From: Sarea resinae
Lineage: Eukaryota
DNA length: 64,000 nucleotides
Assembly: GCA_026026165.1 (NCBI GenBank)
Contig: JAPEUD010000009.1
Coordinates: 124,001 to 188,000, forward strand
Direction of reading: 5' to 3'
Part shown: one piece after another, positions 1,314-56,987 of the stretch
Layout: every line of letters begins with the position of its first letter
How positions within the stretch are numbered: position 1 is the first letter of the stretch
Translations under genes and position numbers: made by a program
The notes under the pieces: model-generated
The model's database searches: none
Told to the model about the DNA's origin: nothing
Seen by the model: the letters and a program-made list of their open reading frames with translations, nothing else

Positions 1314-4300
1314 CTTGACGGATACCCGCCTGCTTACAGTCTGTACGAAGCACGTCGGGTTGGATGAGACGGCGGTGTGGGGAATCGGGGAAAATTAATT
1401 CCCTGCTGCAGGAGCGGTACTGGGATGAAATCAATGGTCTGGACATCGTGGAAGAAAAATGAAGGCGGTGGAGGCCCCGGCAGGAAGACAAGAGACTAGG
1501 CCGAGGTGGTCCGCGGAGGACTGACCTGACAAAAGTACGGATTGATATTGACTGTTTTGTACGCTTAGTATATGTTGGATTTCCCGGTGGGGTCTGAGGT
1601 CTGAGAAGGCTACGAATAAGAAAATAGAGATAACAGTGGCAATATCATCATCTACCACTGTTATTGTCGTCGTTGCTGTCGTTTTCCCCTAAAGGTAGCT
1701 CGAATACTGCGTGAATACTCCATAGTACACGAATCCAATTCGATGATTTTTCACACATAGCGAGATCCAATTTGATCGATGATCGACCGTAGTGGTACGG
1801 AGTAGTACGGAGTACAGGAGACTCCGCTCCACTGGTCTATCGTACGGCTGGCTACAGTAGTAGTACCTCAGGTACAGATCATCATCCTCTCGGTATCCGC
1901 CATCCGTTTCAAGCCTAAGGTAGATACTACTCCACTCTCCACGCAATCCAACTCCCTCGCTCGTGAGAACTTTTCCAGTAGAACCGCCATTGCAAAAATT
2001 CTCCATATCAACAACAGAAAACCCCATCGAGACAGCTCACCGCCACATGGAAGTGGAGGCGGAGGTGGAGGTGGAGCCAAACCAATGCAGACAGAGCGAG
2101 ACCTCGTGTGCAGGGCGTCAAGGTAGGGCCGCGGAGCGAGCCGGCTAGGACATGCACTTACATAAGTCCTTGTTGACTATGTACGCAGCAGGTATGCTCT
2201 GCTCTGGCGCTGCCGGACAAGGGCAAAGCAGGCGAGACGCGAGACGACGCGAGAGGAGAGGCATTCAGGACAGGACGAGATGCGCGAAGCTGAGCTGCAT
2301 GAGCTGCATGCCCAGCATGCACGCACCCTGCAAGCCTGCAACTGCCGACTGTCTCATCTGGCTCTGTGATCAGGGATGGATTTCGAGCGAGGGTCCGAGA
2401 GTCTGAGGGCCTTTCCAGGGCACTGGTGCAGTCGCGTGAGCAGACGCTCTGTTTACATCCGATATTGTAGCACCCTACTATGTACGTTTGTAGAGTCCGA
2501 GTAGTGCTCCGGAAGGGATCGTCGATGGACGGAGCTGGACCTGGACCTTTGCCGGCGGGGGATACTACGCAGGACTGTCGCTGTGTTTGTTTACTGTCGT
2601 ACGGCGTATGGAGAAGACTACCGTGCGTTTGTACTCCACCATGACTCCCCCTCTTGCACGGACTGCCATCTCAAACGCTCTTCTCGATCAACGATATGAT
2701 TTAGACGACGATGGAATCAGAGACGGCTGACTCATCCGCCAAGAAAAACGATCGAGATCTGCAACCTGCTCGCCGAGCATTCTTCGACAAGATCAAGTCG
2801 AAGTTTCACCTCATGCCAGTCCAGAGTGACGATATTGCAATGACCTCAGACGTTTCCCATCGAAACCTCGATGCCAATCTAATCGGTTCGATGAGCATTC
2901 GTCGGGGCAATGGAGAATCCGACTGATGATGAAAATCCCCCAAATCCGCCAGAAAGCATCCCATGTTTGCATAAACATGGCCAGATTCCACTTGGCTGCA
3001 CAAGATGCACGCAAGGGGATCGGCAGAGTCATACGTATGAAGCTTTTGAATAATGCATCATCTTGTTGTCGGCCCTCAGTGCTGAGATGATGGTACTCGA
3101 ATAGATTGGAGTCTCTAGTCGTAACCCTCCGTGCACCGTGGGAGAGGGAGAGGGTGTAGGAAGCTGGGCTCTGATAGGGCTGGCGGGTCTGATAAGCGGT
3201 CGCCCGTTTGGCCATCACCGTCGAGAGGGCTGGCTTTGACCCTGCTTGCTTCTGGCAGCTGTTTGGTGCCCGCCACTTTCCCGTTTGAGCTCATAACAGC
3301 TCAGGGCTCCGACGAGTTCAGATCTCCGATCTCCCAAGGTAAGGAGGAAAATAGGGATCTGTGGTCTAGAGCCAGACGAATGCTCGAGTGTTGAATGACG
3401 ATGCTCTAGCTACTCTATCGAAGGAGACATTCGGAAACGAAGCTCTCAGGAGCTTCCCAGCTCTAAGCAACTGGCCGAGACGGGCATCCAAGCCAGATGA
3501 TACTGCAATCCGGCACGAAGTGGGGTACAACATAGGTACGGCAGTCCGTAGTCCGCTTCATTACGACGATCATTGGGGTACTCCGTACTCCGTAGTTGTT
3601 GGGGCCCCTCCATATCATCGTCCTATGCAGATGGTCATTGGCTGGTATTACCTTGGAGTCATGCTCGTAATCAAGCAGAGGAAATCCGAATTCGAAAACC
3701 AATGGCAGCAGAGAAAAATGCGAGGATTATGACGAAAGCAGAGTACTCTCCTCTGGTATGCTGTTGATGGGGTGACGGCAGTACTGCCGCAGTGGTACCT
3801 TGGCCGACTTTTAATTTCCGCTGGGCAAGCGGATCCGTCACGAAAGGGCGAAGGTGCGTATGCAGGCGATGCATTCAGCGCAGACACTGCAGTCGCCCGG
3901 GTCGACTACTCCGTATGAAGTAGACAGGTCAACGTGTACTGAAGTACTTTGTACCTCTGTAAACGTGTTCAGATCAAACTCGAAGAGACTCGTGATGCAC
4001 CAGAAGGGAGAGAGAGACGATCCGTCATGCCCTGGCTCGAATAAGGCACACGGACGGACAACGCTTGACTTGATCCAAGCCAGAGGGAAGGGAAGCTCGA
4101 GTCGTCAACGAGGCAGTACTTCATCCGATGTACGTATTCCCTGTGCTGTTCTCGGCCCCCCGGGCGGCTGCACAAACATAGGGGTGATTGGCTTGAGGGA
4201 TGGATCAGATGGACCAAATGCCCAGGTGGTTCGGTTCCATGGCTGCCCTGCCCTCCAGCAGGTCTTACTTTCGTGCTTGGTCTACGGCGCGGGTATCAAA

Positions 4301-46236: not shown

Positions 46237-48429
46237 ATGGCGGATCGTGGGCCTTCCTCTTCGCCGCATCCGCATCCAAAGAACGGGTCCCTTTCTCAGG
46301 ATGCAACTGCTCTCGGATCAGAAAGCGCGCATTCGTTGCCTCGGCACTCTTCGCAAGCACGTAAATCGCTCGAGTCGCTCCACGAGGCGTCGCCACTTCT
46401 TTCTCCGCGGCTTTCTGGCGAGCAGAGCCCTGTGAAAACCCCATCGTCACCGTCGGAAGAAATAGACGATGGCGATGGGCAAGCAACGAAGAGCGTCTGG
46501 TATTTGATATTGCTGACTATGAGTATAGGCGGGTAAGTGATATCAAGTCTCGAGTATTTAACGTGGTACTAAATCTGACTGCATCAGATTGCAAATAGCT
46601 TGGTCTGTCGAGTTGTCTAATGGCTCAGTATGTCCTATTTCATGTGGAGATCTACAGGATCGTGTTAACATCTGCTAGCCGTATCTTCTATCCCTCGGTC
46701 TTAGCAAATCGTTGATGGCCTTCGTCTGGATCGCGGGGCCTCTTTCGGGGTCTCTCGTGCAGCCATATGTCGGTATTCGCAGCGATAATTGCCGCATTGC
46801 TTGGGGTAAGAGGAAGCCATTCATGATCGGAGGAGGACTTGCAACTATAATTTCTCTTCTAGCCCTTTCTTGGACGAAAGAGATTGTTTCGGGATTCTTG
46901 CAACTATTTGGGGCAGAACCACTTTCTCGGGGGGTAAAGAATTCTACTATTGTCTTTGCTGTCTTTTTCGTATATATCCTCGATTTTGCAATCAATGTGG
47001 GTAGGTCACATCCAGCCATCGTCACGAACCAGCACCGTTACTGATGGCATTGGCTGCAGTCCAAGCAGGCATTCGAGCATTCATCGTCGACAATGCGCCG
47101 ACTCATCAGCAAGAGGACGCCAATGCTTGGGCAGGACGTATGACTGGGGTAGGCAACGTCCTAGGGTATCTCTCTGGCTATATCGATTTACCCAGCATAT
47201 TGCCCTTCTTGGGTCATACCCAGTTTCAAGTGCTATGCGTCATTGCTTGCGTGGCTCTCTCGAGCACGATTACCATCAGTAGTCTCTTCATCCGAGAACG
47301 AGACCCCCTGCTCGAGGGCCCAGCACCAAAGGGCCAAGCTGGAGTCCTTGCCTTTTTCAAGCAAACCTTCAAATCTATCGGACGATTGCCACCACAAGTT
47401 CGCAAAGTCTGCGAGGTACAATTCTTTGCCTGGATCGGCTGGTTCCCATTTCTCTTTTACATCACCACCTACATCGGCGAGATCTATGTCGAGCCTATCT
47501 TTGCGGCGCATCCAGACATGTCTGACAGAGATGTCGACCGAGTTTGGGAAAGTGCCACGCGCGTTGGCACGTTTGCCCTCCTTATCTTCGCATTCACCTC
47601 TTTCGGCTCGAATATTCTCCTCCCGTTCATCGTAGCCCGTTCCTATACTGTCGACGCGGCCATCTCACCCTCGCAACCCTCCATCAACCTCACGGCCTCC
47701 ATGAACTCCACCTCAGGACAGCGCAAGCGCTGGTTCTCCCTGACACGTATAAATGCAGCTCTAACAAATGCTTTATCGCATCTTCAAATCCGTTCTCTCA
47801 CCCTCCGACGCGCTTGGCTGATCTCTCACCTCATCTTTGTCATCTGCATGTGGTCGACGCTGCTTGTTCGCACTACCACCGCCGCCACGGTCCTCGTCGG
47901 ATTTGTCGGCCTGCCCTGGGCACTAACGCTCTGGGCCCCTTTCGCCCTCATCAGCGCTGAGATCTCAAAGCGTGATGCTATCCGACGAGGCCAGTTGCGC
48001 GCTCCAGCACTGGATTCCAGCACTGCAACATTCAACAACTCCATCAATTCTGGACCATCTTCTCACACACCAACAACGACTGCTGATATCGAAGCCGCTC
48101 TTCCCTCTCCCAACGACATCGACTCTAACGCAGAAGACCAAGCGGGCATTATTCTAGGCCTCCATAACGTCGCCATTGCCGCTCCTCAAATCATTGCCAC
48201 GCTCCTTAGCAGCATCATCTTCCGCCTGCTGCAAAAGCCTCGGGGTGCGACAGGGGATCAGAGCGTGGGATGGGTGCTTCGGTTGAGTGCCATAGCTACG
48301 CTGGTTGCGGCGTACATGACTTCGAGGGTTGGGGAGGAGAGGGACACACTTAAGGGGGATTACGGGAAGTTGACAAATCCAATTGGGAATTATGATGAAG
48401 TAGATAACGGCCGTGATGGAAGTATATGA
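46237..48429 (+). CDS. Sucrose/alpha-glucoside:H+ symporter (GPH; SUC/SLC45/S. pombe Sut1-like MFS)
   Basis: GGLQIAWSVELSNGS (short exon 46588-46627), WIAGPLSGSLVQPYVGIRSD, WGKRKPF, QFFAWIGWFPFLFY, GIILGLHNVAIAAPQ. Confidence 0.9.
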
Positions 48430-48955
48430 AATGAGCCTCTGTGTATGTTGGGCAAGCGAGGGATATTAGAGGGCCGATCATTTGGTCAGAGACACCTCTC
48501 TCTTTACATACCCTAGCCTCTGTTCCTCTTTCGACATGACCTATATAGTAATATGAACCCATCGTCTACGCTCATTCTATTCTTCTCTTTATAAGATAGT
48601 GATCCATGATTGAGCTCTATTCAGCTCCGCTCTTGTTTTGATATCTCCCGCAAGTGTAGTCGATATTGCTTAAATTTATATCTTTAGTCAAAAGTGATTG
48701 AGACCTCTCAAATTTGCAAGGCTTCTTAATACGTATTGAAAGAAGCTTGCCTGTTGATCAATTGGTCATCCCTCGGGAATCTCATGAATGCTCCGGAAAG
48801 CCTAAGAAAAGGGTTGTGCTGTGAAGTTTCGCCAAGTATGAGAGTCCATGCATTCAATAAGCCTGTCAATTTTTCGTTTTGGCCTTGACGGGATTCGATC
48901 CGGGTGAAGAGATCAAGCTATATATATCTAATTAACACCAGATATTCTAACGAAA

Positions 48956-49176
48956 GGTTGTATGGTCTAATGGTATAAACGGACAGCTGTTACAATGCAA
49001 CTGTCCTGTATAACACGCGGCGTTCTGCCTTTGTATGACCTCACCCGCGTATACACCTTACCATTACGAAATCCGACATAATGATATGCGATCCCCTTTC
49101 AGGCTGGCTTGACGCCAATGAGATAACCCCAACGGGGGTTTCGTAGGACTACTCGAAAGGGTAGTCTGAGCCTTTT
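48956..49176 (+). ncRNA. Candidate structured, Pol III-like non-coding RNA of unassigned family (tRNA-like 5' domain)
   Basis: TATATATAT 48919-48927; A-box-like TGGTCTAATGG 48963-48973; five nested or adjacent helices; GAAA-capped hairpin 49147-49166; TTTT 49173-49176 and T7 49200-49206. Confidence 0.55.
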
Positions 49177-49369
49177 GCTTCCCTGATGGCCTGAGATGAT
49201 TTTTTTGATAGGTCATATACTAGAGTCTAGCAACAACCACCACCATAAGGTAAGGTAGACAAGGCCCGTATTCAGCATTAGAGAGTAACTTACTATCTAC
49301 CATTTTTGTACATGTAGATAGCCAACTACCCTCAAATAGGCAAATCATATACTAGACTTTCATTGCATA

Positions 49370-50324
49370 TCAACGCTTCAGTCTCTTATTCCACTCAACA
49401 CAGTCCGTGAACTTTGCACCTGTACCACCAAAAACGTCCAATGCGCTCCCAATGGTCAAGTCAACTTTTCCATGGCTCAGAGCCTGTACCTTGTCTAGAT
49501 CCTCGACGCTCTTCCCCCCTCCAGCGTACGTGACTGGTATCGAGCACCACTGAGCTAGCTTGCGCACCAGCTCTTCGTCTATGCCTCGTTGCAGCCCTTC
49601 ATTGTCCGCTGCGTGGATGAGAAACTCGGAACAATATGGTTCGAGCATTTTGATAGTGTCTTCAGGGGCCGTTAGATGCGCCATGCTCTCAATTGGATGT
49701 CCTCGAAGCTCACCTTCGTTCACCTCTGTATCGGTCAACTTCTGCCATTTGTTCATGGCTACGAACCAGGAGCTGCCTACTCTCCGGCAGCTTAGGTCGA
49801 TGACCAACTTATTCTTGTCGCCCTGAAGAGCTGAGAGCACGCCTTGTAATCGGTCCATGGAGAATTTGCCATCCGGGAACAGATAGGATGTGATGATGAC
49901 CTACTATTCGCTATCAGCTCTGCCAAAGGGAAATAATAGCAAAGTATTTCGTAATTCGTTCAAGAGCAAATGCAGAAGGAGAAAGAAGCTCAATGCGACT
50001 AAACTCCAGAAAGGATGACCTCACCTTCTCCGCCCCGAAGTTGATCCAATCCATAGCATTCTCCTCCGTGACACCACCACCAACCTGGAAGCCGCCTTTC
50101 CACTCCGAGAGCGCCTCCTGTGCTGCATCCATATTTCCCGGGCCGAGCATGATCACATGCGCGCCCGTCAATCCATTCTCCTTGTAGAGCTTCGCGAAGT
50201 GACCCGCGGGCAGAGTCGACACATGGTTGGTCTTGAGCTCCGCAGAAACATCCGTAAGCGTGCCACCCACGATCTGCTTCACTTGCCCGGAGTGCAAGTC
50301 TATGCAAGGACGAAAGCGTGTCAT
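49370..50324 (-). CDS. HIS6: ProFAR isomerase (histidine biosynthesis)
   Basis: [66 protein letters not shown]; two introns. Confidence 0.96.
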
Positions 50325-55300: not shown

Positions 55301-56987
55301 TCGGATTTGTCGAGAAGCATTATTCGTCCCACTGTGGAAGTGGATGGCGGGTGTACTTTAGTATATTTACGGTAGCATTGCCAATTGATTTAGTGCCCAT
55401 GAGCGATGCTCATCATCGATCGCCGCTTGAGTGCTTGATTGAATAAATTTAGAAAGATCCAACCGAAGCTTGCCTTACCTTATGGATGGTGGTTTGGCGG
55501 CTTCTCGATCAAGGCTCCGGCCATTTTCATCTCCACCCACGGCAAACCCTGTCCACTTCTTCTGTCGGCTGCCAAGTTGTCAAGAGGCCTTGGCCGTGGA
55601 TCGTTTACGACGCTGAGGTGCCTTACTTGACTACGTTGACGGCCCTTGCACCGTGCATATGCCTTACCTAATCGGCGGTAATGGATTTCGGCAGTGATGT
55701 TGCCGGCTCTCTGTGTCGCCCGTCAGGTTACGTCTTCGATATTTGGGACATCGACGCAGACCCTCGAGATGGCATCTTCAGGTCCTGGCCCGCGGTCCAC
55801 TGCTTCTCTGCTTCCATTGCAGCGAGTTTTGGTACCTCGTACCCCGTACTTCGTACATCGCATTGAGCTTATTGTTCAACGTGTGGAGCGAGAGAAGGGT
55901 CTCGGGCCTCTCTGCCGCTGTCAGCGAGGTACGAATTGTAGTAGTATGAGTATTCGTACTTCGTACCTTGCTTCGCACTTTGGGTGGATGACTCGGTACT
56001 CGTACCTTACTTGGGAAGTAGCCACGATTGAAGTCGCGGCAAGGTACCCTGAATTGCGTGTCTTCCGCAGTAGGTACCTACCTAGGTAGGTAGAGTACTT
56101 AGCTCCGGTCACCCTGAAAACGTGGAAGAGAGTCAACAAGCGACATGCTGTCCTTATGTTGTCGGGCCCGCCAGGGCTGTCTTTCTCCTGTGCTGTCTCT
56201 CTGTCACGTCACGACCACTATCGGTTGTTTCTATTCTCATCGTCGTTCTTCTTCTCGTAGATTACTACGTAGTACTGGCTTTCGGTCGTGGTGACTGGTA
56301 GCGGTACTGGCCAGTCTCTTCCTGTCTCTTCCAAAGTCGGCGGATAGAACAGCTTCGCGCCCGCATGTGCACATCCTGGCGCGCACGGGGGTGACCCACT
56401 TTAGCCCGCAGGTCGTACCTACCGATACGCTGCACCTCTTACGACCCTCAAGTCAGAGACCCTCATCGGTCTGGCCATCTCGAGACCCGCGAGATAGTCA
56501 GATACTTCAGTAGTCTTACTCGAGTAGTTCGACGAGTGCTCAGAGTGCGCAGTGTGCTCAGACTGCGAAGACGTCGCTGGCCCATCCCAGATGATCCCAG
56601 ATGATCCCAGATGATCCAGGACACGCCCGTCCATTGCAATCTCTCTTACTGACGGCCCCCCCGGGCGCCTGTTTCAAGTCGCCCAAAGCCCCCTACAGGC
56701 AGGCTACCGAAACTTCCCACTTCCAAAACTCTACTCCGTACGCACCACCCGGCACCGCTGCGCTCCACTACTGTCTACGAAGCACGAAGTACCACTGTCC
56801 GCTACTGCTGCCGCCGACTCGATTTGATTCGGCTCGATTCGAGTTGACTGGACTGTGAGGCCTTGGCTCAGCTTGCAGGTGGCTAGAGTCGACCAAGGCT
56901 TCTCGGTCAGTGTACGGAAGTAGAGTACCCCCATCTCAGGACTCGTCAAGTGCGAAGTGACCTCCCTGCCGCTGCTTGTATGCACCA

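Follow-up and report, generated by a model that had tools for sequence, protein, structure and literature searches.

Located in the 940-nt gap between the convergent permease and HIS6 genes of the resin-dwelling fungus Sarea resinae is an element of ~250 nt (48956-49206) in which a TATA-like run, a tRNA-type A box and oligo-T runs, set out in the geometry of a Pol III gene and rare in that combination, accompany a localised fold signal, and for which Rfam provides no family. All positions refer to the window, namely the entire stretch of 64,000 nt that was analysed. The element is put forward, tentatively, as a candidate for a lineage-restricted, stand-alone structured RNA gene of the orphan Pol III kind, lying on the + strand, a reading that is hardly ahead of one in which there is no gene at all. 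The region had been singled out in a first-pass annotation, made without database searches, as an unassigned and highly structured Pol III-like RNA. Everything that it quoted, namely the helices, the A-box-like motif, the TATA element and the T run, is indeed present at the stated positions. Its description holds for the motifs and, in part, for the fold signal, but not for the strand or for a second structural domain. Of its interpretation, the lack of a known family, a partial fold and a rare layout are retained, whereas the strand argument from G-U pairs, the second helix and a complete type-2 promoter are not.

The permease is of the sucrose-transporter or GPH type, is encoded on the + strand and ends at 48429. 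HIS6, which is encoded on the - strand, ends at 49370 and consists of two exons, both of which match PF00977. The permease ORF at 47044-48426 is 99% identical to a 675-residue Sarea resinae protein that carries PF13347, and the identities originally proposed for the two flanking genes, a sugar permease and HIS6, are thus correct. The second-closest relative of the permease shows just 64% identity. Taken alone, the C-terminal ORF of the window's permease (47044-48429, 461 aa) matches no Pfam family at E<=0.001; the full-length relatives carry either PF13347 or PF07690. One permease relative, P0026, bears the name of a histidine-pathway enzyme, which hinted that the adjacency of permease and HIS6 might be conserved. 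P0026 displays no similarity to HIS6, and its name is therefore regarded as an annotation slip, probably carried over in error.

The element is separated from the permease stop by 527 nt and from the HIS6 stop by 164 nt. The statement that the gap contains no ORF is loose: there is a 50-aa ATG ORF on the - strand at 49064-49216, which has no Pfam match. A coding alternative was rejected, none of four ORFs (42-50 aa) in the 940-nt gap having a Pfam match at E<=1. The GC content is 48-53% across 49001-49200 as compared to 36-44% elsewhere in the gap, which was counted in favor of an orphan Pol III gene. No second copy of the element was found within the 64-kb window. Between the element and the HIS6 stop, the 12-nt sequence TCATATACTAGA occurs twice without mismatch and in direct orientation (49213-24 and 49345-56), and its two copies flank an inverted repeat that is imperfect and has arms of 24 nt (49277-49300 and 49314-49337). 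The segment as a whole, 49213-49356, folds with a z of just -1.92 and gives weak miRNA-precursor-like Rfam matches on the - strand (E 0.7-8.6). A small insertion or duplication may have left this arrangement of repeats behind.

The coordinates of the promoter-like, terminator-like and structural features are provided in Table 1.

Table 1. Sequence and structural features of the candidate element (positions in the window)
Feature	Position	Strand	Remarks
TATA-like run TATATATA	48921-48928	+	-35 to -28 from G48956
A-box-like or tRNA-type D-arm motif	48963-48976	+	begins at +8 of G48956; includes TGGTCTAATGG (48963-73)
Three-way junction	48966-49068	not decided by the fold	robust structural core
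Junction closing helix, 8 bp, TAATGGTA / TACCATTA	48968-75 / 49059-66		encloses two hairpin arms
Junction arm GGACAG / CTGTCC	48981-86 / 49001-06		
Second domain of the first-pass annotation	49063-49147	+	10-bp helix TACGAAATCC (49065-74) / GGGTTTCGTA (49136-45), two small hairpins within
Alternative 3' multibranch domain	49097-49196	+	closed by 49097-49105 / 49188-49196
GAAA-tetraloop hairpin	49146-49167	favors +	continuous 9-bp stem
T4 run	49174-49177	+	terminator in the first-pass annotation; RNA would be ~222 nt
T7 run	49200-49206	+	candidate Pol III terminator; RNA would be ~245-251 nt

The location of TATATATA agrees with that of the TATA-like elements found upstream of tRNA genes, which are reported to lie usually at -34 to -29 (PMC3082873). 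The run could be a TATA box or, equally, one of the AT-rich signals that mark the 3' ends of converging genes. Counting both strands, there are 38 TATAWA sites in the window. The A-box-like motif agrees with the tRNA D arm at all of the semi-invariant positions (U8 R9 G10 Y11 NN A14 R15 N G18 G19 N A21). There are nine matches to this strict motif in 128 kb, and the one at 48963 is positioned where an intragenic A box is looked for, near +8 to +20. A composite was then defined as TATAWA located 30-75 nt upstream of the strict D-arm motif, with a run of at least five T within 400 nt downstream. The sole site of this type in 128 kb is the element itself. In block-shuffled windows the composite occurs 0.02 times per window, with at least one occurrence in 4 of 200. 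A looser scan also picked this locus by way of an overlapping 12-nt match at 48971. By extrapolation, ~10 chance composites would be expected per fungal genome of this size before structure is required, and a chance composite coinciding with a structured island would be expected well under once per genome.

A run of four T is a weak fungal Pol III terminator. Runs of at least seven T number six on the + strand of the window. Read on the - strand, the T7 run of the element is an A7 located 164 nt past the HIS6 stop, just after a TATATG at +151, and for this reason the "terminator" could belong to HIS6 3'-end formation. In yeast, 3' ends are laid out with the efficiency element first and the positioning element behind it, and the TATATG and A7 behind HIS6 resemble this order. 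Efficiency motifs of the yeast poly(A) type follow just two of nine other long ORFs, some of which are perhaps internal exons, and the 3'-end-signal reading, which draws little support from this count, is accordingly weak.

No B box (GGTTCGANNCC) within one mismatch is present on the + strand of the element. The best + strand match there, at 49106-16, has two mismatches, and two-mismatch matches occur at the level of chance (180 found versus 206 expected). The type-2 Pol III layout is thus incomplete. Of the promoter architecture originally proposed, the TATA, A box and oligo-T are present and rare, but they do not amount to a full type-2 promoter; the more general Pol III layout, a TATA ~30 nt before the start together with oligo-T, is there as a matter of sequence presence alone. 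Note that on the - strand at 48891-48901, 55 nt upstream of the putative start and in the opposite orientation, lies GGATCGAATCC, one of around a dozen sites in 128 kb that differ from the B-box consensus by a single mismatch.

The folding of the element was compared with that of dinucleotide shuffles. For 48956-49206 the + strand has a z of -3.20, with 1 of 200 shuffles equally good, and the - strand a z of -4.42, with 0 of 200 equally good. An independent re-scoring with 40 shuffles gave -2.59 and -3.85, respectively. The positional entropy is below that of 60 of 60 shuffles on the + strand and of 59 of 60 on the - strand. In a sliding scan with 120-nt segments, the fold signal is bounded to 48911-49240, and the rest of the gap has a z of ~0.

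The core of the structure is the three-way junction, for which z is -4.04 (+) and -4.95 (-), with none of 200 shuffles equally good on either strand. The GAAA hairpin has a folding energy of -12.6 kcal/mol and a z of -4.50 on the + strand, where it beats 200 of 200 shuffles, and values of -6.7 kcal/mol and -2.34 on the - strand. The second long-range helix of the first-pass annotation does exist as an inverted repeat, but its domain has a z of only -1.24 on the + strand, with 30 of 200 shuffles equally good. When the element is folded as a whole, the helix formed by TACGAAATCC and GGGTTTCGTA gives way to other pairings. The alternative 3' multibranch domain shows -40.5 kcal/mol with a z of -3.27 on the + strand versus -33.1 kcal/mol with a z of -2.65 on the - strand, and its closing helix disappears when the sequence is folded in a 401-nt context. 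In that context the + strand z weakens to -1.67, and, apart from a few small local hairpins, the centroid keeps just the three-way junction and the GAAA hairpin. The terminal helices of the 251-nt fold are lost, and these consequently depend on the cut points. When judged against shuffles, as had been suggested at the outset, the whole element, the junction and the GAAA hairpin all stand apart, whereas the domain at 49063-49147 does not. The well-folding core is genuine, but the structure signal is partial.

Two backgrounds are quiet by comparison. The lowest z among 88 random window-strands is -2.83, with none reaching -2.9. For the 3' flanks of HIS6 in related fungi, a matching 250-nt segment was scored on both strands in 57 of 69 usable loci, and among these 114 strands the lowest z is -2.2, with none reaching -3. 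Ranked by composition regression among 1022 window-strands, the element comes only 37th (+) and 12th (-). Two other regions of the same 64 kb, 3251-3500 and 55876-56125, are equally or more structured. Such islands are thus not rare, occurring at ~1 per 20 kb in this window, and good folding is not by itself enough to indicate a gene. The first of these regions has, on the - strand, a z of -5.5 with 40 shuffles and -3.36 with 200. The second is strong on both strands (-4.7 and -4.5 with 40 shuffles, -4.35 by a second scoring) and is built from repeated palindromes of the GGTACC and TTCGTAC type together with short direct repeats. Neither region has an Rfam match.

The first-pass annotation had favored a + strand RNA on the grounds that the G-U wobbles work on that strand alone. 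This claim fails, for it is on the - strand that the junction and the 5' domain have the better folds. The 5' domain is more stable there by 10.6 kcal/mol (-48.1 versus -37.5 kcal/mol), with a z of -3.90 versus -2.34 on the + strand. One junction arm contains a C.A mismatch when read on the + strand and, in its place, a G.U pair when read on the - strand; for the GAAA hairpin the reverse is true, its G.U lying on the + strand. The greater stability of the GAAA hairpin and of the 3' domain on the + strand was counted in favor of an orphan Pol III gene. The segment 48876-49125 has a z of -5.0 on the - strand. This split between the strands fits an RNA on either of them, and it also fits DNA palindromes that are decaying by transitions.

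A comparison with Rfam 15 at gathering thresholds gave no match anywhere in the window, and at E<=10, searched with 751 and 271 bases, only unrelated models appeared (E 0.7-8.6). These were miRNA precursors, a bacterial sRNA, an lncRNA fragment and a C/D snoRNA, with scores of 10-20 bits as compared to gathering thresholds of 43-93. None of the models for SRP RNA, tRNA, U1/U2/U4/U5/U6, U3, RNase P/MRP, snoRNAs, telomerase RNA or the Afu_ families matched at E<=10. The original contention that the element belongs to no known family is thereby upheld. ARAGORN identified no tRNA gene in the 64-kb window, and a tRNA gene was rejected for want of a cloverleaf and of any Rfam tRNA match at E<=10. 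Also rejected on inspection by eye, with signature motifs or geometry absent and no Rfam match, were SRP RNA, RNase P/MRP, the snRNAs and U3, box C/D and H/ACA snoRNAs, the hammerhead, and a telomerase RNA with spliceosomal 3' cleavage. A weak match to snoZ43 at 49188-49266 has no D box. In the case of an Sm-class snRNA, the U7 has GA on either side and might be taken for an Sm site, yet no snRNA model matches.

Relatives were sought by a metagenome scan with the C-terminal exon of HIS6, which yielded 80 fungal loci having best-segment identities of 51-81%. Within these 80 loci, blastn with the element gave two matches, both with an E of 6.7, nhmmer gave none, and tblastn revealed no permease neighbor. 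Single-sequence covariance models built for the 5' domain (R1) and the 3' domain (R2) were run against 377,617 bases and matched the window itself and nothing else. Given that the neighborhood is not shared and that the nearest HIS6 reaches only 81% identity over its best segment, the missing homologues are weak evidence against conservation. At 130-380 nt past the HIS6 stop, the sequences of 57 of 57 related fungi are unstructured, with a sense-strand mean z of 0.30 and a minimum of -1.34, and the structure is thus not a conserved or general feature of HIS6. In 60 of the 80 HIS6 loci, tRNA genes were sought as references for promoter layout, and none was found. Searches of a limited body of literature revealed no ncRNA study in Sareomycetes and nothing relevant on Sarea resinae genomes or on Pol III ncRNAs of filamentous fungi. 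One paper places Sarea in Xylonomycetes.

The most serious competitor, only slightly less credible than an orphan Pol III gene, is that there is no gene and that imperfect local palindromes have clustered neutrally in a terminator-to-terminator gap, the promoter- and terminator-like signals being due to chance or to coincidence with AT-rich 3'-end sequences. Both strands fold well, and the informative mismatches are divided between them, just as random transitions in DNA palindromes would give. To this may be added the two other islands with equal or stronger z values, the modest ranks in the composition regression, the part of the proposed structure that is not significant or not robust, the absence of a B box, the lack of homologues in the 80 HIS6 loci, and the TATATG and A7 behind HIS6. 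The rare composite, however, falls on one of ~3 structured islands in 64 kb, a coincidence that by our estimate would arise well under once per genome. The fold signal is, moreover, sharply bounded, two adjacent hairpins within an 8-bp closing helix are an unusual shape for a foldback or MITE relic, and the window contains the element just once. If instead it is the - strand that functions, either as a long HIS6 3' UTR or read-through tail or as an independent RNA, the stronger z values of the whole element, the 5' domain, the junction and 48876-49125 on that strand would be explained, and the element would simply start 164 nt downstream of the HIS6 stop. This is considered unlikely: the matching segment downstream of HIS6 is unstructured in all 57 related fungi, a UTR extending to 48956 would exceed 400 nt, no T run follows the element on the - strand, and both the 3' domain and the GAAA hairpin fold less well there.

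Less probable still is that a tRNA gene, or a SINE-like mobile element with a tRNA head, has left a relic here which kept the upstream TATA and the A-box head and lost everything else. Such a relic might, in the manner of ZOD1, show weak Pol III transcription yet serve no function itself. The complete set of D-arm semi-invariant positions at the 5' end points in this direction, as do the one-mismatch B-box-like GGATCGAATCC on the opposite strand and the TATA at the distance reported for tRNA genes (PMC3082873). Against a relic, ARAGORN and the Rfam tRNA model (E<=10) find no tRNA, no cloverleaf can be drawn by eye beyond the D arm, no B box is correctly oriented, the + strand carries neither an A-rich or simple-repeat tail nor an obvious target-site duplication, and there is no second copy in 64 kb. 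It is very improbable that the element is a divergent member of a known family, such as SRP RNA, RNase P/MRP RNA, an snRNA or an snoRNA, that the Rfam models missed. Its first ~14 nt may loosely resemble the start of yeast SRP RNA, and the seven U between GA and GA can be read as an Sm site. None of the SRP, RNase P/MRP, snRNA, snoRNA, telomerase or tRNA models reached E<=10 with either 271 or 751 bases, however, and the best-scoring models are unrelated ones far under their gathering thresholds. In addition, the ends of the element form no long helix of the SRP helix 5 type, and the 9-bp stem of the GAAA hairpin is continuous, without the internal loops of SRP helix 8.

The tentatively preferred reading remains that of an orphan Pol III gene on the + strand. 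Counted in its favor, along with the GC content and the + strand preferences already mentioned, were the discrete island, the shuffle z values, the entropy, the quiet backgrounds, the unique composite, the position of the TATA run and the lack of Pfam matches among the small ORFs of the gap. Counted against it were the missing B box, the better folding of the - strand, the cut-dependent helices, the weak second domain, the two rival islands, the possible 3'-end signals and the lack of a homologue. As to its transcription, the polymerase, the strand, the ends and the function, we infer the following. The TATATATA run would position TFIIIB/TBP, with the tRNA-type A-box head at +8 assisting in its placement, and transcription would start at G48956 or just upstream. 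The weak T4 would be read through and the polymerase would stop at T7, thereby giving an RNA of ~245-250 nt with an oligo-U tail. The stable parts of such an RNA would be the ~100-nt three-way junction and the GNRA-capped hairpin. The tRNA-like head suggests that the element may have descended from the head of a tRNA gene, and a role as a protein-binding scaffold is a guess. The more ambitious proposal, namely that the element is the founding member of an undescribed Sareomycetes family of Pol III RNAs of ~250 nt, with an origin in a tRNA head, a TATA and A box without a B box, and a scaffold function, appears unlikely as a whole.

Should both transcription and conservation be borne out, the element would be a new structured small RNA among the very few that Pol III is known to make in fungi beyond tRNA, 5S, U6, SRP and RNase P, and it would provide an example, in Sareomycetes, of the reuse of a tRNA-gene head. 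If it is not transcribed, it shows how a well-folding island beside AT-rich 3'-end signals can mimic a small-RNA gene.

With respect to known systems, the element is of a size class similar to that of fungal SRP RNA (Fungi_SRP / Metazoa_SRP) and shares with it a possible Pol III layout and perhaps a loose 5'-end resemblance. It differs in having no covariance-model match, no end-to-end helix 5 and no internal loops like those of helix 8. In common with tRNA-derived SINEs and with MITE or foldback relics, it has a tRNA-like head and folds strongly on both strands; unlike them, it is single copy in 64 kb, and no spanning terminal inverted repeats, tail or target-site duplication were seen. The resemblance to tRNA genes with an upstream TATA (PMC3082873) extends to the TATA at -35 to -28, the full set of D-arm/A-box positions and the downstream oligo-T, whereas the element is ~250 nt long and has neither a cloverleaf nor a B box. 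The kind to which the element may belong is exemplified by two orphan Pol III loci of budding yeast, RNA170, which has no known function, and ZOD1, a weakly transcribed relic of a tRNA-Ile gene (PMC5356446). Neither has an Rfam model that matches the element, and the likeness is one of description. RNA170 and ZOD1 were recognized through their transcripts and their occupancy by Pol III/TFIIIC, whereas the element is known from its sequence. What the three would have in common is that each is a small, lineage-restricted non-coding unit outside of the classical set that carries remnants of a tRNA-type promoter, which in the present case take the form of a tRNA-like head.
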